Shown: positions 10,949 to 20,066, counted from the stretch's first letter. The stretch is 64,000 nt of DNA from Burkholderiales bacterium (GCA_044870335.1 JBIOYV010000102.1:2477-66476); one strand, 5' to 3'. Notes: a model not told the origin generated them from the sequence alone. Numbers and translations: made by a program.

Positions 10949-12132
10949 GCACGCTCATCCTCAAGCGGGGGCGCGAAAAGTCGCTCAAGCGGCGCCATCC
11001 GTGGCTGTTCTCGGGCGCGATCGAAAAGCTGTCGGGCAAGCCCGGCGCGGGCGACACGGTCGAAATCAGGGACGCCTCGGGCAAGCCGCAGGGACGCGCG
11101 GCGTACAGTCCGAAGTCGCAGATCCGTGCGCGCATGTGGACCTTCGACGCGAACGAGGAAGTGGACGCCGCCTTCTTGCGCCGGCGCATCGAGCGCGCGC
11201 TCGCCCTGCGCGAAGCGCTGCCGGCGCGCCGCCACACCAACGCCCTGCGCCTGGTGCACGGGGAATCCGACGGCCTGCCCGGCCTGATCGTCGACCGGTA
11301 TGCGGACGTGCTGGTGGCGCAGTTCCTCGCCGCGGGCGTCGAGCGCTGGCGCGATCCCATCCTCGACACCCTCTCGGAGCTGACCGCGGCCGAAGCGATC
11401 TTCGAGCGCTCCGACGCCGAGGTGCGCAAGCTCGAGGCGCTGCCCGCGCGGGTCGGCTTCGCGCGCGGCAACCGCAACGCCTCGCGCTGCCCGATCGTCG
11501 AATACGGGCTCAATTTCCGCGTCGACGTCGAGCAGGGCCAGAAGACCGGCTTCTTCCTCGATCAGCGCGAGAACCGGCAGCGCGTGCGCGAGCTCGCCGC
11601 CGGCCGCGAGGTGCTCGACGGCTTCAGCTACACCGGCGGTTTCTCGATCGCGGCGCTCGCCGGCGGCGCGCGAAGGATCACCGCGATCGAGAGCTCGGCG
11701 CCCGCGCTCGAGGTGGCGCGCGAGAACCTGGCCGCGAACCCGTTCGACGCCGCGAAGGTGCAATTCGTCCACGGCGACGTGTTCGCCCAGCTGCGCACCC
11801 TGCGCGACCGGGCGGCGCAATTCCAGATGGTGATCCTCGATCCGCCGAAGTTCGCGCCGAGCGCCGCGCAGGTGAAGAACGCCGCGCGCGCCTACAAGGA
11901 CATCAACCTGCTCGCGCTCAAGCTGCTCGCGCCGGGCGGGCTGCTCGCGACCTTCTCGTGCTCGGGCGGGGTCTCGGCGGAGCTGTTCCAGTCGATCGTC
12001 GCCGGCGCCGCGCTCGACGCGGGTGCCGACGCCAAGATCGTCGAGCGCTTCGGCGCCGCCGCCGACCATCCCGTAGCGCTCGAATTCCCGGAAGGGGAAT
12101 ACCTGAAGGGGCTGCTGGTGATGAAGTCCTAA
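10945..12132 (+). CDS. rlmI: 23S rRNA m5C1962 methyltransferase (RlmI family)
   Basis: RRHPWLFSG, GQKTGFFLDQRENR, DPPKFA, PEGEYLKG. Confidence 0.92.
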   Translation: MSTLILKRGREKSLKRRHPWLFSGAIEKLSGKPGAGDTVEIRDASGKPQGRAAYSPKSQIRARMWTFDANEEVDAAFLRRRIERALALREALPARRHTNALRLVHGESDGLPGLIVDRYADVLVAQFLAAGVERWRDPILDTLSELTAAEAIFERSDAEVRKLEALPARVGFARGNRNASRCPIVEYGLNFRVDVEQGQKTGFFLDQRENRQRVRELAAGREVLDGFSYTGGFSIAALAGGARRITAIESSAPALEVARENLAANPFDAAKVQFVHGDVFAQLRTLRDRAAQFQMVILDPPKFAPSAAQVKNAARAYKDINLLALKLLAPGGLLATFSCSGGVSAELFQSIVAGAALDAGADAKIVERFGAAADHPVALEFPEGEYLKGLLVMKS

Positions 12133-12144
12133 GCCAGAACCCCA

Positions 12145-12166
12145 AAATCAGGGACAGACCACGTTT
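12145..12166 (+). repeat. REP-like 22-bp inverted repeat, left copy
   Basis: AAATCAGGGACAGACCACGTTT is the exact reverse complement of 12640..12661. Confidence 0.92.
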
Positions 12167-12197
12167 TTTTGCGTCAACGCGACAGGCGAGCTGTCCG

Positions 12198-12641
12198 TTG
12201 AGTGGGCATCTTTGGGAGGGCCGCTTCAAGTCATGCCTCGTGCAGTCCGAACAGTACGTGCTCGCCTGTTATCGCTATGTAGAACTGAACCCGGTGCGCG
12301 CGGGGCTGGCGGCACGGGCGGACCAATATCAATGGTCCAGCTACCGCGCCAATGCGACTGGTGAGCACTCGGAGCTTCTGACGCCGCACCATGAGTACTT
12401 GAGATTGGGTAGTACTCGCGAAGAGCGGCAGGCTGGCTATCGGGACCTCTTTCGCATGGTTCGGGGCGCCGAGCTGGAGCGCATTCGCGTGGCGACGAAC
12501 GCGGGGTACGTGCTGGGAGATCCCTCGTTCCGGGCGATGATGGCGCGCAGGCTTGGTCGGCGCATGGAGAAGGGGCAAGCAGGACGGCCATCGGCGAGCG
12601 GCCTAGTGGAGGGGCAACTCGACTTGTTGAGCGGAAAATAA
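12198..12641 (+). pseudogene. N-terminally truncated REP-associated tyrosine transposase (RAYT, Y1/HUH family)
   Basis: SGHLWEGRFKS, YVLACYRYVELNPVRAGL, YQWSSY; no upstream HUH half. Confidence 0.85.
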
Positions 12642-12661
12642 ACGTGGTCTGTCCCTGATTT
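12640..12661 (-). repeat. REP-like 22-bp inverted repeat, right copy
   Basis: AAACGTGGTCTGTCCCTGATTT, overlapping the RAYT stop codon. Confidence 0.92.
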
Positions 12662-12717
12662 GGTTTGGTTGACGCTTTTGGCGGCATTTATAATCCCGCC
12701 CTTCGCCAGGAGCACTC

Positions 12718-13701
12718 ATGGAAGAGAGCAACATGGTGCCGGTGACGATCCTCACCGGGTTCCTCGGCAGCGGGAAGACCACGCTGCTCAACCGGATCCT
12801 GAAGGAGGACCACGGCCACCGCATCGCGGTGATCGAGAACGAGTTCGGCGAGATCGGCGTCGACAACGAGATCATCGAGACCGGCGACGAGCAGATCGTC
12901 GAGATGAACAACGGCTGCATCTGCTGCACGGTGCGCGGCGATCTGATCCGCATCCTCGGCACGCTCAAGGAGAAGCGCGACGGGGGCAAGCTCAAGTTCG
13001 ATCGCGTGGTGATCGAGACCACCGGCATGGCCGACCCCGGCCCGGTGGCGCAGACTTTTTTCACCGACGAGGAGATCGGCAACTACTATCTCCTCGATTC
13101 GATCATCACGCTGGTCGACGCCAAGCACGCGCCGAAGCAGCTCGACGAGTTCCACGAGGCGCAGGAACAGGTCGGCTTCGCCGATCGAATCCTTCTGTCA
13201 AAAACGGATCTGGTTTCGCAGGCTGAGGCCGAAACGCTCTCGCAGAGGCTGAAAAGAATGAATCCCCGTGCGCCCATCAAGAAGGTGCACTTCGGCGACG
13301 CGCCGATCGGGGACGTCCTCGACATCCGCGGCTTCAACCTGAACGCGATCCTGCAGCTCGACCCCGAGTTCCTCGTCGACAGCCACCACGAGCACCACGA
13401 TGAGGTCGAGTCGTTCGTGTTCAAGTCGGCCAAGCCCTTCGACGGCCAGAAGCTCGAGCAGTTTCTCTCCGGCATGATCCAGGTCTACGGCCCGGACCTC
13501 CTGCGCTACAAGGGCGTGCTGTGGATGAAAGGCAACCCGCGGCGCGTGGTGTTCCAGGGGGTGCACATGATGATGGGCGGCGACATGGGCAAGCCCTGGG
13601 GCAAGGGCGAGAAGAAGCAGTCGATCATGGTGTTCATCGGCAAGAAACTGCCGAAGGACATCTTCATCGCCGGCATGGAGGAGTGCCTCGCCGGTAAGTA
13701 A
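12718..13701 (+). CDS. COG0523/CobW-family G3E GTPase metallochaperone
   Basis: GFLGSGKTT, NGCICC, IETTG, HHEHH insert, LRYKG, FQGVH. Confidence 0.95.
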   Translation: MEESNMVPVTILTGFLGSGKTTLLNRILKEDHGHRIAVIENEFGEIGVDNEIIETGDEQIVEMNNGCICCTVRGDLIRILGTLKEKRDGGKLKFDRVVIETTGMADPGPVAQTFFTDEEIGNYYLLDSIITLVDAKHAPKQLDEFHEAQEQVGFADRILLSKTDLVSQAEAETLSQRLKRMNPRAPIKKVHFGDAPIGDVLDIRGFNLNAILQLDPEFLVDSHHEHHDEVESFVFKSAKPFDGQKLEQFLSGMIQVYGPDLLRYKGVLWMKGNPRRVVFQGVHMMMGGDMGKPWGKGEKKQSIMVFIGKKLPKDIFIAGMEECLAGK

Positions 13702-13722
13702 ACCGCCTCGTAGACCGCCTCG

Positions 13723-14352
13723 ATGATTTCCGTTCGCGGACTTGCGCACCGCTACGGCAGCGCCGAAGCGCTGCGGCTTCCACAGTGGATCGTGGCGCAG
13801 GGCGAGCGCTGGGCGGTGCTGGGCGCTTCGGGCAGCGGCAAAACCACCCTCCTGCACGTAATCGCCGGCCTGGTCCGGCCTAGCGAAGGCGAGGTCGAGG
13901 TTTCGGGCGAGAAGCTGCGCAAGCTCGACGACGCGAGGCTCGATCGCTGGCGTGGCGCGACGGTGGGGATCGTGCTGCAGGCCCTTCACCTGGTACGCCA
14001 TCTTTCGGTGCGCGACAACCTGCGCCTCGCGCAGTACCTCGCGCATCTGCCGCAAGACGACCTGCGCATCCAGGACACCCTCACTGCGCTCGGGGTCGCG
14101 GCGAAGGCGGCGCGCCGCCCACCCGAGCTCTCGCAGGGAGAACGCCAGCGCGTGGCGATCGCGCGCGCCGTAGTCAACCGGCCGAAGCTGCTGCTCGCCG
14201 ACGAGCCAACCGCGAACCTCGACGACGCGGCGGCGGCGCTCGCGGTGGATCTCCTGACCGAGCAGGCGGCGCGGTACGGCGCGACACTGGTGGTGGCGAC
14301 GCACGACGCGCGCGTGAAGACCAAGTTCCGCGAACGGCTGGAGCTCGCGTGA
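13723..14352 (+). CDS. ABC transporter ATP-binding protein (LolD/MacB-type)
   Basis: GASGSGKT, LSQGERQRVA, LADEPT, ATHD. Confidence 0.92.
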   Translation: MISVRGLAHRYGSAEALRLPQWIVAQGERWAVLGASGSGKTTLLHVIAGLVRPSEGEVEVSGEKLRKLDDARLDRWRGATVGIVLQALHLVRHLSVRDNLRLAQYLAHLPQDDLRIQDTLTALGVAAKAARRPPELSQGERQRVAIARAVVNRPKLLLADEPTANLDDAAAALAVDLLTEQAARYGATLVVATHDARVKTKFRERLELA

Positions 14353-15557
14353 ACCTCGCGTCGCTGTCGGCAAGCTACCTGCGCGCGCGGCCGCTGCACA
14401 CCGCGCTCAGCCTGATCCTGCTCTCGCTCGGCGTGGCGACGATCGTTCTGCTTCTCCTGGTGGTCGGGCAGCTCGAGGAGCGCATGCAGCGCGACGCGCG
14501 CGGGATCGACCTCGTCGTCGGCGCCAAGGGCAGCCCGATGCAGCTCATCCTCTCGGGCATCTATCACCTGGATGCACCGACCGGCAATGTCCCGCTCGCC
14601 GCCGCGCAGGCGCTGGCGAAAGAGCGCTTCGTGAGGAAGGCAATGCCCCTCGCGCTCGGCGACAGCTGGAAGGGTCACCGCATCGTCGGCGCGGGACACG
14701 ATTATCCAAACCACTACGGCGCGGCGCTCGCGGCCGGGCGGCTGTGGGAAAAGCCGATGGAAGTCGTGCTCGGCGCCGAGGTGGCGCAACGCACGGGGGC
14801 CGGCGTCGACGCGAAATTCGCCGGTGCGCACGGCATCAGCGGCGAGGGCGAAGCGCACGAGGCGGCCTACACGGTGGTCGGCGTGCTCGGCCCAACGGGA
14901 AGCGTGCTCGATCGCCTGGTCCTCACGAGCATTGAAAGCGTGTGGCACGTGCACGAGCCGCACCAGGGTTCGCAGGACACGGCCGACAAGAAGGACAAGG
15001 CCGCCGAGCCCGACCGCGAGGTGACCGTCGTGCTACTGCAATACGCCTCGCCGCTCGCGGCGGCGACGCTGCCGCGCCAGATCAACTCGAGGAGCGAGCT
15101 TCAGGCCGCTTCGCCCGCGGTGGAAACCGCGCGCCTTCTCCGCATCGTCGGCGTGGGAGCGGAGGCGCTGCGGGCGTTCGCGATCGTCCTCATGGTCGCG
15201 GCGGGCCTGTCGGTCTTCATCGCCCTCTACACCGCGCTCGAGGAGCGCCGCTACGACCTCGCGGTGATGCGCACCCTCGGCGCCTCGCCGCGCCGGCTTT
15301 TCGGGCTGCTCTTGCTCGAAGGGCTGGTCCTCGCTCTCCTGGGCGCGCTCATCGGCCTCGCCCTGGGCCACCTTTTCGCCGCGCTGCTCGGACTCTGGCT
15401 GCAGGGCCACCAGCAGTACGCAGTAACGGGCCTTGCCTGGCGCCCGGAGGAGCCGTGGCTGGCCGCAGCGGCCCTGGGCGTGGGCGCCCTTGCCGCCCTG
15501 CTTCCGGCGTGGCGCGCCTACCGGACCGACGTGTCGCGCACGCTCGCCCAGGGCTAG
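14349..15557 (+). CDS. FtsX/MacB-type ABC permease (ZrgC-like)
   Basis: DLVVGAKGSPMQLILS, ALGDS, SVWHVH, RTLGAS. Confidence 0.88.
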   Translation: MNLASLSASYLRARPLHTALSLILLSLGVATIVLLLLVVGQLEERMQRDARGIDLVVGAKGSPMQLILSGIYHLDAPTGNVPLAAAQALAKERFVRKAMPLALGDSWKGHRIVGAGHDYPNHYGAALAAGRLWEKPMEVVLGAEVAQRTGAGVDAKFAGAHGISGEGEAHEAAYTVVGVLGPTGSVLDRLVLTSIESVWHVHEPHQGSQDTADKKDKAAEPDREVTVVLLQYASPLAAATLPRQINSRSELQAASPAVETARLLRIVGVGAEALRAFAIVLMVAAGLSVFIALYTALEERRYDLAVMRTLGASPRRLFGLLLLEGLVLALLGALIGLALGHLFAALLGLWLQGHQQYAVTGLAWRPEEPWLAAAALGVGALAALLPAWRAYRTDVSRTLAQG

Positions 15558-15622
15558 GCGGGATTGCAAAGGCGCCGGATTCGGCAAATACTGTCGCCCC
15601 GGCCCAGCCCAGAGCCCGAAAC

Positions 15623-16096
15623 ATGAAAACCCAGGCGTTTCTGTTCGCACTGGCATTCGCCTTTCCGGCCGCGGCACAGCAGCATCAGGCCCTGCCGGGA
15701 GTCGACCCCAACCCGCCGTTCAAGCCCCTCGCCGAGCGCAAGGACGTCGTCTCGTGGAAGCTCCTCGCCGAGGTGGAGCTGGTGAAGCAGAAGGACCGCT
15801 ACGTGCCGCAGTTCTCGCAGGGCGTCGCGGCGCTCGACCAGAAGGAAGTGAAGCTCGAGGGCTTCATGATGCCGCTCGAGATGGGCGACAAGCAGACCCA
15901 CTTCGTGCTGTCGGCGCTCCCGGTCACGTGCGCGTTCTGCCTGCCCGGCGGTCCCGAGGCCTTGGTCGAGGTCAAGACGAAGCAGCCGGTGAAGTACAGC
16001 TTCGACCCGATCGTCGTGCGCGGCAGGATGTCCGTGCTCAGGGACGATCCGACTGGCGTCTTCTACCGCATCACGGACGCTGTCCACGCCAACTAA
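15623..16096 (+). CDS. DUF3299 secreted protein (ZrgD-like)
   Basis: Signal peptide; VKLEGFMMPL, CAFCLPGGP; follows ABC permease. Confidence 0.8.
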   Translation: MKTQAFLFALAFAFPAAAQQHQALPGVDPNPPFKPLAERKDVVSWKLLAEVELVKQKDRYVPQFSQGVAALDQKEVKLEGFMMPLEMGDKQTHFVLSALPVTCAFCLPGGPEALVEVKTKQPVKYSFDPIVVRGRMSVLRDDPTGVFYRITDAVHAN

Positions 16097-16106
16097 CCTT
16101 CGGGCT

Positions 16107-16397
16107 TTGATCGCGCGGCTGCTGCTCGCCGCGGCGCTGCTCGCCGGCTGGCAGGCGGCGCTCGTCCACCCGCTGCAGCACGCCGACGGCGCGGGTCTGG
16201 TTCACCTCGGCGGCAAGTCTTCCGAAAAAACCGCAGCCTGCGACGCGCTCGCCGCGCTGACTGCGTGTGCGGCGCAGTCGCCGTACGCGTTCGAGCCACC
16301 GGCGGCCGACCGGCACGCCTTCCGGTTCTCCGAATCCCGGCCGCGCGCAGCCGAAGCGCCGCCGTTCCTCGCCCAGGGTCCGCCAGCACTTCTCTGA
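16107..16397 (+). CDS. DUF2946-like leader protein with QGPP (RAPP-like) C-terminus
   Basis: Hydrophobic N-terminus, HPLQH, two Cys, Pro-rich tail ending AQGPPALL, directly upstream of an outer-membrane transporter. Confidence 0.72.
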   Translation: MIARLLLAAALLAGWQAALVHPLQHADGAGLVHLGGKSSEKTAACDALAALTACAAQSPYAFEPPAADRHAFRFSESRPRAAEAPPFLAQGPPALL

Positions 16398-16460
16398 GTC
16401 GCTTCCAGGCGCGCACCGTGATCGCACGGTGCGCTTGGCCATCACTCAGATAGGGAGTGC
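16386..16460 (+). promoter_or_regulatory. Predicted SD-sequestering mRNA structure
   Basis: 16386-16399 pairs with 16444-16460 (7 bp, 3-nt bulge, 7 bp) over AGGGAG; encloses a perfect 10-bp hairpin 16411-16434. Confidence 0.65.
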
Positions 16461-16464
16461 AAGC

Positions 16465-17802
16465 ATGTTCCGCAGTGTGTGTTGCGCAGTGGCGCTTGCC
16501 ACGGCAGCCGTTCCCGCGTCGGCGCAGGACGCGGAGCTCTCCAAACTCCGGGAGGCGCTGCGCCAGCTTCAGCAGCAGGTGCAGGAGCTGGAAAAGCGCG
16601 TGCAGGAGGCCGAGGCGAAAAGCACCAAGCCACAGGAAGCCGCTGTGCCAGCGCCACCACCGCCGCCGCCGGCTCAGCCCGGACGCGCCGGCGGATCGAA
16701 CGCGTTCAACCCCGACATCTCGGTGATCCTCCAAGGCACCGCGGCGCGCAGCTCGCTCGACCCGAACACCTATCAGATCACCGGGTTTGCGCCTTCGGGC
16801 GGCGAGGTCAACCCGGCGCCGCGTGGATTCAGCCTCGGCGAATCCGAGCTCATCATCACGAGCAACGTCGATCCGTACTTCCGGGGTCAGCTCGTCGCGT
16901 CGCTCACGCCGGAGAACGAGGTCGAGGTCGAGGAGGCGTTCTTCCAGACGCTCGCGCTCGGCCGCGGCTTCACGCTGAAGGGCGGGCGCTTTCTCTCCGG
17001 CATCGGCTACCAGAACGAGATCCACCAGCACGCCTGGGACTTCCAGGACGCGCCGCTCGCCTACAAGGCATTCCTCGGCGGCCGGCTGAACGACGACGGC
17101 GTGCAGTTGCGCTGGCTCGCGCCGACCGAGCTTTTCGTCGAGCTCGGCGCCGAGCTCGCGCGCGGGCGCAGCTTCCCGGCGGCCGACAACAACCGGAACG
17201 GCGCCAATGCGTGGACCGTGTTCGGGCACGTGGGCGGTGACATCGGCGAAAGCACCGCGTGGCGCGCCGGCCTTTCGTACCTGGGCGCCTCGCCGCAGGA
17301 CCGTGCTTTCACCGATCTCAATTCAACCCAATCCTTCACCGGCGACAGCCGCACGTGGATCGCCGACTTCGTCCTCAAGTGGGCGCCGAACGGCAATGCC
17401 TCGGTCACCAACCTGAAGCTGCAAGGTGAGTACTTCCGTCGCGAGGAATCCGGCGCGCTCACCGTCGACGCCTCGAGCGGCGATTACTCGAGCCGCCAAT
17501 CGGGCTGGTACCTGCAGGCGGCGTACCAGTTCATGCCGCGCTGGCGCGTGGGTTACCGCTACGATCGCCTCGACCACGGCACGGTGACCAACGGCCTCGG
17601 CCTCGCGGCGCAGGGTGCGCCGCTTCTCTTCACCGACCATAACCCGACGCGCAATACCGCCATGGTGGACTGGAGCCTCACCGAGTTCAGCCGCTTCCGC
17701 CTGCAGTACGCGCTTGACAAGTCGCGCGCCGACATGACCGACAACCAGCTCCTTCTCCAGTACATCCTCAGCCTGGGCGCGCACGGCGCGCACAAATTCT
17801 AG
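16465..17802 (+). CDS. Outer-membrane beta-barrel, metal-uptake associated, with N-terminal coiled coil
   Basis: Signal peptide, coiled coil, FNPDISVIL, HQHAWDF, C-terminal GAHGAHKF; upstream of a metal-binding protein. Confidence 0.8.
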   Translation: MFRSVCCAVALATAAVPASAQDAELSKLREALRQLQQQVQELEKRVQEAEAKSTKPQEAAVPAPPPPPPAQPGRAGGSNAFNPDISVILQGTAARSSLDPNTYQITGFAPSGGEVNPAPRGFSLGESELIITSNVDPYFRGQLVASLTPENEVEVEEAFFQTLALGRGFTLKGGRFLSGIGYQNEIHQHAWDFQDAPLAYKAFLGGRLNDDGVQLRWLAPTELFVELGAELARGRSFPAADNNRNGANAWTVFGHVGGDIGESTAWRAGLSYLGASPQDRAFTDLNSTQSFTGDSRTWIADFVLKWAPNGNASVTNLKLQGEYFRREESGALTVDASSGDYSSRQSGWYLQAAYQFMPRWRVGYRYDRLDHGTVTNGLGLAAQGAPLLFTDHNPTRNTAMVDWSLTEFSRFRLQYALDKSRADMTDNQLLLQYILSLGAHGAHKF

Positions 17803-17809
17803 GAACGCC

Positions 17810-18706
17810 ATGAAAAGCATCGCCGCGATCTTTCTCATGCTGTCGGCTTCGCCGGGCGCGCTCGCCGCGCTGAACATCTTCGCGTGCACGCCGGAATGGG
17901 GCGCGCTCGCGAAAGAGCTGGGCGCCGGCAAGGTGAACGTCTATGTCGCATCCACCGCGCTGCAGGACCCGCACCGCATCGAGGCGCGGCCCAGCCTGAT
18001 CGCCCGGGCGCGCAGCGCCGATCTCATGGTATGCAACGGCGCCCAGCTCGAGATCGGCTGGCTGCCGCTCGTGCAGCAGCAGTCGGGCAACACGAAGATC
18101 CAGCCCGGACAGCCGGGCTACTTCGAGGCGGCAGCCGCGGTGGCGCTCATCGAGAAGCCGGCGAACGTGGACCGATCGCAGGGCGACGTGCATCCCGAGG
18201 GCAACCCGCATGTTCACCTCGACCCGCGCAACGTCGCGCTCGTCGCAGCTGCACTCGGCGAGCGCATGGCGCGTCTCGATGCCGGCGAGGCGGCGCTCTA
18301 CCGCAGCCGCACCAAGAGCTTTCTCGAGCGCTGGAAGGAGGCCGCGGCGCGCTGGCAGAGGGAAGGGGCGCCGCTCAAGGGCGTCGGCGTGGTGGTCTAC
18401 CACAAGAACCTGAGCTATCTCCTGAGCTGGCTGGGCATGCAGGAGGTGGGCGCGCTCGAACCCAAGCCGGGACTGCCGCCGAGCACGGCGCACCTCAACG
18501 AGCTTCTCGAGCAGCTGAAGCGGACTCCCGCGAAAGCGGTGGTCCGCGCGGCCTACAACGAGCCGCGCGCGGCCGAGTGGCTGGCGGAGCGCACGAAGAT
18601 CCTGCCCATCACGCTGCCCTACACGGTGGGCGGCACCGATGCGGCGAAGGACCTCTTCAGCCTGTACGACGATACGCTCGCGCGCCTGCTCGCGATCGCG
18701 AAATGA
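17810..18706 (+). CDS. Zn/Mn ABC substrate-binding protein (ZnuA/TroA family)
   Basis: [32 protein letters not shown]. Confidence 0.92.
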
Positions 18707-19470
18707 GCTTCGATCCCGGCATTCTGTGGGCACCGCTCGTTGCGGGACTCCTCGTGACGGCGACGCACGCGCCGCTTGGCATGCAGGTGCTGAATCGCGG
18801 CATCGTGTTCATCGACCTCGCGGTCGCGCAGATCGCCGGGCTGGGCGTGATCTTTGCCGACTGGCTCGGCTTCGAGCCGCAGGGCGTCGCGGTGCAAGCC
18901 GCGGCCCTGACCGCCGCGCTCGCCGGCGCGCTTCTCCTCAACTGGACCGAAAAGCTGTGGCCCGACGTACAGGAAGCGGTCATCGGAGTCACGTTCATCG
19001 TTGCGGCCAACGCGGCGATCCTGCTCCTCGCCGCGAATCCGCGGGGCGCAGAGCATCTCAAGGATCTCCTCATCGGCCAGATCCTGTGGGTCCGTTCGGC
19101 GCAGCTCCCGATCATCGGCCTGCTCTCGGCGGCGATCCTCGCGGTCTGGTTCGGCCTGCGCGGCAGGATGGGCCGCAGCGGCTTCTACCTCGTGTTCGCC
19201 TGCGCGGTGACGCTTTCGGTGCAGCTCGTCGGCCTGTATCTCGTTTTCGCCACGCTGATCGTTCCCGCGCTCGCTACGCGCAGGCTTTCGCGGGGACGGC
19301 TCGCGGCCTGCTACGGCATCGGCGCCGCGGGATACGCGGCCGGGCTGCTCGCTTCCGCAATCACCGATCTGCCCGCGGGGCCTCTGGTCGTTTGCGTCAT
19401 GGCGCTCCTCGGCGTCGTCCTGCTGGCCGGGACCTCGCGCTCGGCGGTTCATGGCAGCGAACAGGTGTAG
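18703..19470 (+). CDS. Metal ABC permease (ZnuB family)
   Basis: [27 protein letters not shown]. Confidence 0.88.
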
Positions 19471-19483
19471 CCTTGATATCTTC

Positions 19484-19509
19484 GATACCGGCTCCAGATA
19501 CCGGTTCCA
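19484..19509 (+). repeat. 13-bp tandem duplication in the hslV promoter region
   Basis: GATACCGGCTCCA followed by GATACCGGTTCCA. Confidence 0.8.
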
Positions 19510-19529
19510 GATCATTGCGCTCCGACCGC

Positions 19530-20066
19530 ATGCAAGAATTCCATGGCACTACCATTCTTTCCGTGCGCCGCGACGGCAAGGTCGCGCTCGGCGGCGACGG
19601 GCAGGTGACGCTGGGCAACGTCGTCGTCAAGGGCGGCGCGAAGAAGGTGCGCCGCCTCTACCAGGACCGCATCCTCGCCGGGTTCGCCGGCGGCACCGCG
19701 GACGCGTTCACGCTGTTCGAGCGCTTCGAGGCGAAGCTCGACAAGCACCAGGGCAACCTGATGCGCTCCGCGGTGGAGCTCGCCAAGGATTGGCGCACCG
19801 ACCGCATCCTGCGCCGCCTCGAGGCGATGCTCGCGGTCGCCGACCGCGAGCACTCGCTCATCATCACCGGGATGGGTGACGTGCTCGAGCCCGAGCAGGG
19901 CGTGCTCGCGATCGGCTCGGGCGGCCCCTATGCGCAGAGCGCGGCGAAGGCGCTGCTCGACAATACCGATCTCGGTCCGCGCGAGATCGTCGACAAGTCA
20001 TTGGCGATTGCGGCCGATTTGTGCATCTACACCAATCACCAGAGAACCATCGAGGTTCTGGAATGA
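19530..20066 (+). CDS. hslV: ATP-dependent protease subunit HslV
   Basis: [30 protein letters not shown]. Confidence 0.97.

Follow-up and report, generated by a model that had tools for sequence, protein, structure and literature searches.

A 96-amino-acid (aa) open reading frame (ORF) on the plus strand of a 64,000-nucleotide (nt) stretch of DNA from a Burkholderiales bacterium (GCA_044870335.1, JBIOYV010000102.1:2477-66476; the whole of this stretch is called the window, and positions are counted from its first letter) is a real, conserved gene under peptide-level selection, and sequestration by its 3' end of the Shine-Dalgarno (SD) element belonging to the next gene, which encodes an outer-membrane barrel with a predicted porin-like fold, is conserved among relatives and supported by covariation. 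The small ORF (16107-16397) is located between a DUF3299 gene and the porin gene in a zinc-type gene cluster. The explanation favoured here, with moderate confidence, is that its product would be a cis-acting, exported small protein of the DUF2946 (CruR/CutF) kind that works through regulated stalling of its own translation. The original prediction, made from the sequence alone, was of a metal-sensing leader ORF in which a ribosome stalled at the motif QGPP would mask an anti-SD sequence and switch on the genes for the barrel, a ZnuA-type protein and a ZnuB-type permease.

The small ORF starts with TTG and ends with the stop codon at 16395-16397. The predicted peptide features are all present: a signal-like N-terminus of residues 1-20 (16107-16166), resembling that of CruR as judged by hydropathy alone, with R4 followed by a hydrophobic run and a maximum Kyte-Doolittle 15-residue mean of 1.95 at residue 6; a His cluster, H21-P-L-Q-H25...D27...H33 (16167-16205), of which HPLQH is residues 21-25; a C45-D46-x7-C54 motif, or C-x8-C (16239-16268); and a tail, A84-PPFLAQGPPALL-96 (16356-16394), in which the candidate stall codons of P92 and P93 occupy 16380-16385. 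In an alignment of 30 small-ORF family sequences (A1), the invariant residues are L11, L12, A13, W15, Q16, L19, H21, P22, H25, G30, H33, C45, D46, L51, A53, C54, P85, P86, F87, Q90, P92 and P93, while D27 is conserved in at least 90% of the sequences; in 29 of the 30 members a basic residue and then a hydrophobic run come before the His motif, with the hydrophobic maximum 14-22 residues ahead of it. The 30-residue linker between the Cys motif and the terminal Pro-Pro (PP) contains no consensus residue in A1. The distance from C45 to P92 is 47 residues in the window, and the corresponding spacing is 47 (75 ORFs) or 48 (8 ORFs) in 83 of 85 family ORFs; the next Cys follows at +9 in all 79 ORFs scored, and in 84 of 89 there are exactly three residues between the terminal PP and the stop. 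The residue two positions ahead of the Pro-Pro is Gln in 84 of 86 unique ORFs, encoded equally by CAG (42) and CAA (42), and the Gly that follows it is encoded by GGT (40), GGC (29), GGA (8) and GGG (4); because codons vary synonymously at these conserved residues, selection on the tail acts at the level of the peptide.

Of 322 candidates from a word-indexed search, 198 were homologues at E<=1e-3, with lengths of 52-168 aa, and the 120 listed out of these 198 carry no Pfam domain; an exhaustive hidden Markov model (HMM) search with A1 identified 95 cluster representatives in 1.84 billion proteins. The small ORF itself has no match in NCBIfam or Pfam (no Pfam family at E<=0.1), and nothing significant was returned by a sequence search of the PDB with its profile (best E 3.7). 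In the genomes sampled, the family is narrow: it is present at E<=0.01 in 15 of 61 genomes of relatives, 12 of which belong to the genus of the window (counting the window's own genome); nine related loci at E<=1.8e-13 are all within that genus; and among 401 genomes drawn evenly from the order, each scored on at most 12 candidates, it matched 3 at E<=1e-6, every one of them belonging to the GTDB family of the window.

The RNA structure that had been predicted at the end of the small ORF is present both in the sequence and in its fold. The 5' arm (16386-16399), which is the anti-SD and comprises the three final sense codons, the stop codon and a further 2 nt, pairs with the 3' arm (16444-16460), which contains the SD sequence AGGGAG (16452-16457) 7 nt ahead of the ATG of the porin gene at 16465, by 7+7 base pairs (bp) with a 3-nt bulge. 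Within the 67-nt intergenic gap, this outer helix encloses a G+C-rich hairpin (16411-16434) with a perfect 10-bp stem (arms 16411-16420 and 16425-16434) and a 4-nt loop, with no run of T after it. The minimum free energy (MFE) of 16360-16480, outer helix included, is -49.4 kcal/mol. Both arms of the outer helix are identified by the window fold, by relatives and by covariation.

For each related locus, the ORF tail, intergenic region and downstream start were extracted from genome and metagenome contigs, and the SD was called paired if, in the MFE fold of the locus itself, at least three of its four core bases paired with the final codons of the small ORF. Among the 66 unique sequences whose downstream start could be called, 57 pair the SD with the tail of the small ORF, 4 pair it with another stretch and 5 leave it unpaired. 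The pairing occurs in two registers: in one, the last two sense codons and the stop codon pair with the SD; in the other, found with tails ending PPASV or PPxLS, the Pro-Pro codons (CCU CCC) do so. In an alignment-free duplex test of 62 loci, a set that omits L041, L049 and L072 (doubtful downstream starts) and L033 (25-nt gap), cognate 5' and 3' arms form duplexes that average -16.86 kcal/mol, compared to -14.84 kcal/mol for non-cognate arms and -10.3 kcal/mol for shuffled 3' arms, and none of 10000 permutations gave an average as low.

Covariation was scored on a covariance-model alignment of 55 sequences with a model built from 21; the initial search also gave 9 weaker minus-strand matches, and the final search was made without L071 and at a tighter E-value, with loss of the plus-strand matches of L071 and L046. 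In this alignment, 91.8% of cells are paired (85.1% in shuffles), double-sided changes occur in 16 of 23 pairs (54 cells), and the covariation score is 0.198, compared to 0.111 for shuffles, of which 0 of 500 scored as high, and to 0.049 or less in all six slid controls; these figures are not probabilities, because the sequences share ancestry and were aligned to fit the structure. The inner hairpin (helix 4) has 98.5% of cells paired and double-sided changes in 5 of 7 pairs. A MAFFT alignment (A2) analysed by RNAalifold recovered the inner hairpin alone, having missed the outer helix because the SD arm was misaligned, and the covariance-model alignment was used instead. In the tail, 52 of 86 ORFs use CCT for the first Pro of the terminal PP, a codon that accounts for 42 of the 540 Pro codons in the body of the ORF, and 70 of 86 use CCC for the second; CTG is avoided as a codon for Leu in the tail (4 of 195, compared to 475 of 1171 in the body). 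This codon choice fits the anti-SD and shows selection on the RNA. Thus, the claim that the 3' end of the ORF sequesters the SD of the barrel gene is borne out by the folds of relatives, the test of cognate arms and the compensatory pairs, and the check suggested along with it, folding and covariation across orthologs, found the helix conserved.

The protein layout is shared with DUF2946. In a comparison set of 23 DUF2946 proteins encoded by members of the window's order, the spacing of Cys to PP is 49-52 residues in all 23, PP is followed by three residues in 16, and the motif is RAPP in 15, RGPP in 7 and RDPP in 1. Distant relatives of the small ORF, found with the A1 profile, have CxxC and tails such as PRAPP..SQAPPxxS or RGPPxxL, and among 81 representatives of the family the Cys motif is C-x8-C in 35, CxxC in 15 and CxxC with a further Cys in 1. 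Profile comparison by hhalign gave a probability of 99.7% for A1 against its own distant relatives, 81% (P 1.4e-6) for the distant relatives against DUF2946, and 69% (P 5.5e-6) for the whole family (83 representatives) against DUF2946. Six of ten distant relatives hit Pfam DUF2946 just below its cut-off, the best at 23.3 compared to 23.7 bits, and in the Atlas the nearest named cluster of the small ORF has DUF2946 on 20% of its members. Because of the shared layout and the chain of profile similarity through the distant relatives, the small-ORF family is read as a divergent branch of the DUF2946 superfamily, linked via intermediate families, rather than as a member of the Pfam family.

The effect of a translating ribosome was modelled by folding the mRNA of the 62 loci with a mask extending up to +15 nt from the P-site codon. 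The mean probability that the SD core is unpaired is 0.05 in free mRNA, 0.06 with a ribosome five codons ahead of PP, 0.335 with a ribosome at PP and 0.321 with a terminating ribosome. The end of the ORF is therefore where a ribosome is predicted to open the SD, since the unpaired probability rises only there. Immediately after the stop codon of the small ORF is a second anti-SD (16398-16406), the middle helix in free mRNA, which in constrained folding of the window substitutes for the masked first arm by forming an alternative 8-bp helix (16398 and 16400-16406 with 16453-16460); its UUCC core is nearly invariant in a 21-sequence alignment (A3). The two anti-SD sequences may constitute a three-state switch.

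A mechanism can be proposed on this basis. In free mRNA the last codons of the small ORF are computed to pair with the porin SD, so downstream translation should start only with a ribosome at the end of the small ORF. The conserved PPFLxQGPP block would slow or arrest that ribosome 15 nt ahead of the stop, when P92 occupies the P site and P93 the A site. The dwell time would be set by the fate of the N-terminal part that has emerged, with its export signal, His21, His25 and His33, and its Cys45/Asp46/Cys54 motif held at a fixed 47-48 residues from PP. By analogy with CruR, binding of metal would shorten the pause and the helix would re-form, and uptake components of the outer membrane and periplasm would then be made only under metal scarcity. 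The ligand is probably zinc, because the device sits in a cluster of CobW, Zrg-like ABC (ATP-binding cassette), DUF3299, porin, ZnuA and ZnuB genes. In its full form the proposal is of a zinc-sensing nascent chain that pauses at QGPP while its His/Cys/Asp segment samples zinc in the periplasm or close to the translocon, zinc releasing the pause so that the helix closes and the porin and ZnuA/ZnuB are switched off; this version is tentative, being possible rather than probable. If it is true, a post-transcriptional checkpoint that reads the periplasm is added to Zur-type control that reads the cytoplasm, an arrest motif exists in which Gln replaces Arg, and the same principle would explain the ZrgD/DUF2607 proteins of Zur regulons. 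In the mechanism as a whole, the least secure steps are which metal is sensed and in which direction it controls expression.

A number of results weigh against the explanation by regulated stalling or against parts of it. The stall motif is its weakest link. All 19 substitutions of the Arg of RAPP abolish arrest in ApcA, ApdA and ApdP, as reported in PMC12992588, which cites earlier work for the same requirement in SecM and describes a CruR reporter with the substitution R139A (AAPP) that loses its arrest product in vitro. The small ORF has Q90 at the position of this Arg, so QGPP, which had been predicted to be a RAPP-like motif, is not one in the strict sense and can at best be an EF-P-sensitive PP pause, the Arg being irreplaceable; CutF, for its part, uses PPP and not GPP. 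Alternatively, slowing might be achieved via the wider conserved PPFLxQGPP block. The predicted freeing of the SD by a PP-stalled ribosome holds for the family mean relative to free mRNA; for the window itself it does not, the SD staying paired (probability unpaired 0.01 to 0.02) under the PP mask because 16398-16406 is a second anti-SD, and the terminating position being the only one that raises the unpaired probability (to 0.26). Since PP stalling and plain termination open the SD equally in the models across the family, the RNA data fit simple translational coupling just as well. The ORF is also operon-internal, its TTG being 10 nt past the stop of the DUF3299 gene, unlike homologues of CruR, which are the first gene; it is thus not the leader that had been predicted. 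As for homology, the HMM check against DUF2946 found no match for the window ORF or for any of the 30 A1 members at E<=10 (Pfam PF11162, gathering cut-off 23.7 bits), nor does DUF2946 match in the window's own genome, and direct hhalign comparison of A1 with the 23 DUF2946 proteins is weak (P 0.0025, probability 4.8%). The assignment of zinc comes from the neighbouring genes alone, and a search of the window for a Zur box found 0 matches to the one pattern tried, a 17-nt E. coli-like palindrome with up to 3 mismatches allowed. Finally, the fold of the window is only modestly better than that of shuffled sequences (z = -2.02; 8 of 200 shuffles fold as well), and the covariation was scored on an alignment fitted to the structure under test.

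Plain translational coupling, the likeliest of the alternatives, is considered rather unlikely. According to it, the stem makes translation of the porin gene conditional on ribosomes completing the small ORF, the SD is opened at termination, the small protein is a stable zinc-handling accessory (as has been assumed for ZrgD), and its conserved C-terminal block would have a role in protein-protein contact or in membrane topology rather than in regulated arrest. The modelled opening on termination (0.32, compared to 0.335 at PP), which in the window occurs on termination only, agrees with it, as do a QGPP without the Arg that RAPP arrest requires and a position in mid-operon closely following the DUF3299 gene, which is typical of coupled genes; the invariant His, Cys and Asp residues would suit a mature zinc-binding protein. 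What argues for regulated stalling instead is that a linker of 30 residues, fixed in length and free of consensus, is hard to explain in a folded mature protein, that PP is placed exactly three residues from the stop in 84 of 89 ORFs, that the family is probably homologous to one with two nascent-chain sensors, and that the small ORF is reused ahead of three unrelated kinds of exported protein.

Control of transcription in the manner of CruR, with a pause that protects the operon from Rho-dependent termination or polarity and with an SD helix of secondary importance, is improbable. A sequestered SD would leave the start of the porin mRNA untranslated, and untranslated mRNA generally favours Rho action. 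CruR, the closest studied uptake-linked relative, does use Rho-dependent termination (PMC9426467). The gap, however, is short, at 67 nt (34-69 nt in relatives) compared to 162 nt between cruR and bfrG (PMC9973294), it is mostly base-paired and G-rich rather than C-rich and unstructured, and the feature that is conserved and covaries is the SD helix itself. A chance ORF with a chance hairpin in a G+C-rich intergenic stretch, for which it could be said that the z-score of the window fold is only -2.02 and that long spurious ORFs are common because the genome is 67% G+C, can be dismissed, refuted as it is by a conserved family with synonymous variation, conserved synteny and covariation.

The genes around the small ORF are all on the plus strand, in DNA that is 67% G+C over the window. 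The first recognisable gene of the cluster encodes a CobW/COG0523-type GTPase (12718-13701; Pfam cobW 4.7e-59, CobW_C 2.6e-24). It is followed by a ZrgC/ZrgB-like pair, an ABC ATPase (13723-14352; Pfam ABC_tran 3.9e-33) and an FtsX/MacB-type permease (14349-15557; Pfam FtsX 1.1e-17, MacB_PCD 3.2e-9), and by the DUF3299 gene (15623-16096; Pfam DUF3299 2.2e-8), which is ZrgE/PA4066-like. Downstream of the small ORF are the porin gene (16465-17802; 445 aa, with no Pfam family above cut-off), a gene for a ZnuA-family periplasmic metal-binding protein (17810-18706; Pfam ZnuA 1.1e-39) and a gene for an ABC-3 (ZnuB-type) permease (18703-19470; Pfam ABC-3 4e-20), the ATG of which overlaps the znuA stop; hslV- and hslU-like genes come next. 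In an NCBIfam scan, the matches of the ZnuA-family protein to AztC, MntC and ZnuA were all under their cut-offs, and the ZnuB-like protein had sub-threshold matches only. The ZnuA- and ZnuB-type genes (17810-19470) have no adjoining gene for a ZnuC-type ATPase, and the cluster encodes one ABC ATPase only, of the MacB/Zrg type (13723-14352). An ORF upstream of cobW (11001-12638) was at one point guessed to be transposase-like, an assignment that was dropped for want of Pfam support.

Directly upstream of cobW is a TATAAT-like box with a leader of approximately 25 nt (...CCCGCCCTTCGCCAGGAGC..ATG; 12684-12720). In a k-mer comparison of 23 cobW upstream regions (22 loci and the window), the box is kept in 12-13, and no Zur-type palindrome was recognised. 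A simple promoter scan found no promoter-like site in 12400-19800, a simple terminator scan found no terminator-like site in the gap between the small ORF and the porin gene, and an Rfam scan of 12000-20000 gave two chance-level matches (E 0.45 and 0.95), neither of them intergenic.

Synteny was tabulated for 111 copies of the small ORF in 101 loci, which were not de-duplicated and include some contigs drawn from two sources. The next gene downstream within 260 nt is a homologue of the barrel gene for 78 copies and another gene for 19, with too little DNA for 14; the next gene upstream on the same strand within 260 nt is DUF3299 for 48, cobW for 36 and another for 22, with too little DNA for 5. 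TonB-dependent receptors (Plug and barrel domains) are downstream of the small ORF in L024 and L030. A secreted protein of 80-83 aa with four Cys and several His, ending in ...CGMKHQH and without a Pfam family, is encoded at seven loci (L021:4678-4923, L027, L073, L084, L089, L097 and L113), five of which carry two tandem copies of the small ORF; its gene is placed between the tandem copies or downstream of a lone one, and in all seven the tail of the preceding small ORF pairs with its SD. This protein may be a periplasmic metal-binding protein. The downstream SD is paired to the small-ORF tail in each non-barrel case examined, and the small ORF behaves as a portable module. At two loci (L030:3200-3967 and L032), a Fur-family gene (Pfam FUR 4.8e-9) is directly upstream of cobW, and cobW is followed by a CxxC/SQAPP variant of the small ORF and then by a TonB-dependent receptor; a Fur-family neighbour is evidence that the wider family belongs in a zinc (Zur) context.

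The barrel was modelled with AF2 on an alignment of 27 homologues (predicted local distance difference test, 72.1; predicted template modelling score, 0.70). The model has a signal helix and a helix of residues ~24-53 (coiled coil), then a Pro-rich linker that is disordered, then a barrel, and Foldseek matches it to the trimeric porins OmpT, ChiP, OprP, DcaP and OmpF (E 1.7e-12 to ~1e-8); the Atlas label for its neighbours is 'porin family', and a PDB sequence search with its profile gave nothing significant (best E 0.11). The modelled fold is thus similar to that of trimeric porins. The differences from CruR that had been listed for the window, namely QGPP, the lack of CxxC, and a coiled-coil barrel followed by ABC metal-transport components, agree with the sequence, this model and the Pfam assignments.

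A lead to another family comes from locus L144, in a host of a different family but the same GTDB class as the window. There, a 92-aa DUF2607 protein (L144:1489-1767, minus strand; 30.4 bits, above cut-off) ends in TRAPPHFL, its gene is followed by a barrel gene with a product 51% identical to that of the window (E 2e-122), and the last codons of the DUF2607 gene pair with the SD of the barrel gene. The window ORF and the 30 family members have no match to Pfam DUF2607; one distant relative (P0212), the sole one to do so, hits it weakly (E 0.0078), and hhalign of A1 with the L144 protein is not significant (P 0.15). DUF2607 matched a single genome, the same one in both samples, out of 301 in the class and out of 75 in the order to which that genome belongs. 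DUF2607 is the family listed for ZrgD of the Zur-regulated zrgABCDE operon of Vibrio, in which ZrgE is a DUF3299 protein and ZrgB and ZrgC are the ABC permease and ATPase (PMC9817125); ZrgD is described as hypothetical, and its knockout as having no effect on growth with zinc chelators (PMC9820375). The ZrgD-type proteins encoded in Zur regulons may thus act as arrest-peptide regulators, a lead that comes from one locus and one weak hit.

Devices of this kind are already known and predicted to be widespread. The new points are the zinc-type cluster, the porin-ZnuA-ZnuB target, the operon-internal position, QGPP without Arg, C-x8-C with a His cluster, and an anti-SD formed by the ORF itself. 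CutF and CruR, which have been studied experimentally, both respond to copper (PMC9973294, PMC9426467), and extension to other metals has been predicted, nickel and cobalt being named (PMC9973294). No zinc-responsive member was found described in the literature searched, and the main text of PMC9973294 uses 'zinc' and 'ZnuA' zero times, although its supplements might list such cases; the window ORF is possibly the first zinc-linked nascent-chain metal sensor of this kind. The locus offers a well-defined zinc candidate, with a compact covarying RNA switch made from the stop region of the ORF itself, a fixed 47-48-residue ruler and a QGPP motif that ought not to cause arrest by the rules for RAPP. 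If QGPP stalls, the sequence rules of PP arrest are wider and outer-membrane zinc uptake has a translational checkpoint; if it does not, the layout of DUF2946 can be kept for plain coupling.

Four known systems can be compared with the window ORF. Like ZrgD, it is a protein of ~100 aa with a single N-terminal transmembrane segment, whose operon also encodes a DUF3299 protein and an ABC pair of the MacB type; unlike ZrgD, it lacks a DUF2607 match, and the comparison is with one DUF2607 locus rather than with a Vibrio sequence. The RAPP/RGPP peptides (ApdA, ApdP and ApcA, with RAGP in SecM) likewise have a C-terminal x-(A/G)-P-P near the stop, are exported and are encoded upstream of a regulated gene. 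In them, the ribosome is arrested with Pro-Pro in the P and A sites and Arg is irreplaceable, whereas the window family has a near-invariant Gln (84 of 86), so that the window ORF would be an analogous device at most.

CruR (Bp2923, DUF2946) of Bordetella pertussis was the precedent named in the original prediction, and its design does match, with an N-terminal export signal, an outer-membrane uptake protein as the target, which in CruR the metal switches off, and a conserved distance from Cys to PP: 45 residues between CXXC and RAPP in CruR compared to 47-48 in the window family, where the spacing is kept within 1-2 residues. In CruR, PP is three residues from the stop and the distance from Cys to PP is reported to be a functional ruler (PMC9426467); arrest at the Pro-Pro codons has been demonstrated in vitro (PMC12992588), and copper relieves the arrest, leading to Rho-dependent termination ahead of the gene for a TonB-dependent transporter (PMC9426467). 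The window family differs in having C-D-x7-C rather than CXXC, and QGPP rather than a RAPP with an essential Arg, although PP is at the same position; in the failure of the window ORF to match the Pfam DUF2946 model; and in its operon-internal placement with a 67-nt gap, whereas cruR is first in its operon and the cruR-bfrG intergenic region is 162 nt long (PMC9973294). CruR, moreover, works by Rho-dependent termination independently of its signal peptide.

CutF, encoded in the cutFOG operon of Rhodobacter capsulatus and not named in the original prediction, is the closer mechanistic match. It is a small, Sec-exported, DUF2946-like protein with CxxxC and a proline-rich C-terminus that acts in cis only (PMC9973294); an intergenic stem-loop with an anti-SD shields the SD of the next gene (PMC9973294, bioRxiv 10.1101/2025.02.05.636593), and its PPP is an EF-P-sensitive pause (bioRxiv 10.1101/2025.02.05.636593). 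Common to both systems are thus a small exported protein, which carries a Cys motif in its centre and a proline motif at its C-terminus, and a stem-loop that shields the next SD. By a rule, 5,334 'CutF-like' proteins were defined, mostly beside copper genes and some beside HupE/UreJ (PMC9973294), and the window ORF falls within that rule with its 96 aa, its PP at residues 92-93 of 96, its 67-nt gap and a signal judged by hydropathy alone; its stem-loop, too, shields an SD and is within reach of a ribosome positioned at the C-terminal motif, with the caveat of the second anti-SD in the window. The differences are that CutF has CxxxC and PPP, senses copper and switches on a detoxifying oxidase, whereas the window ORF has C-x8-C with a His cluster and QGPP, forms the anti-SD from its own last codons and stop codon, and precedes uptake components in a zinc-type cluster. 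Because its targets are of that kind, the logic of the window device is probably inverted relative to that of CutF.

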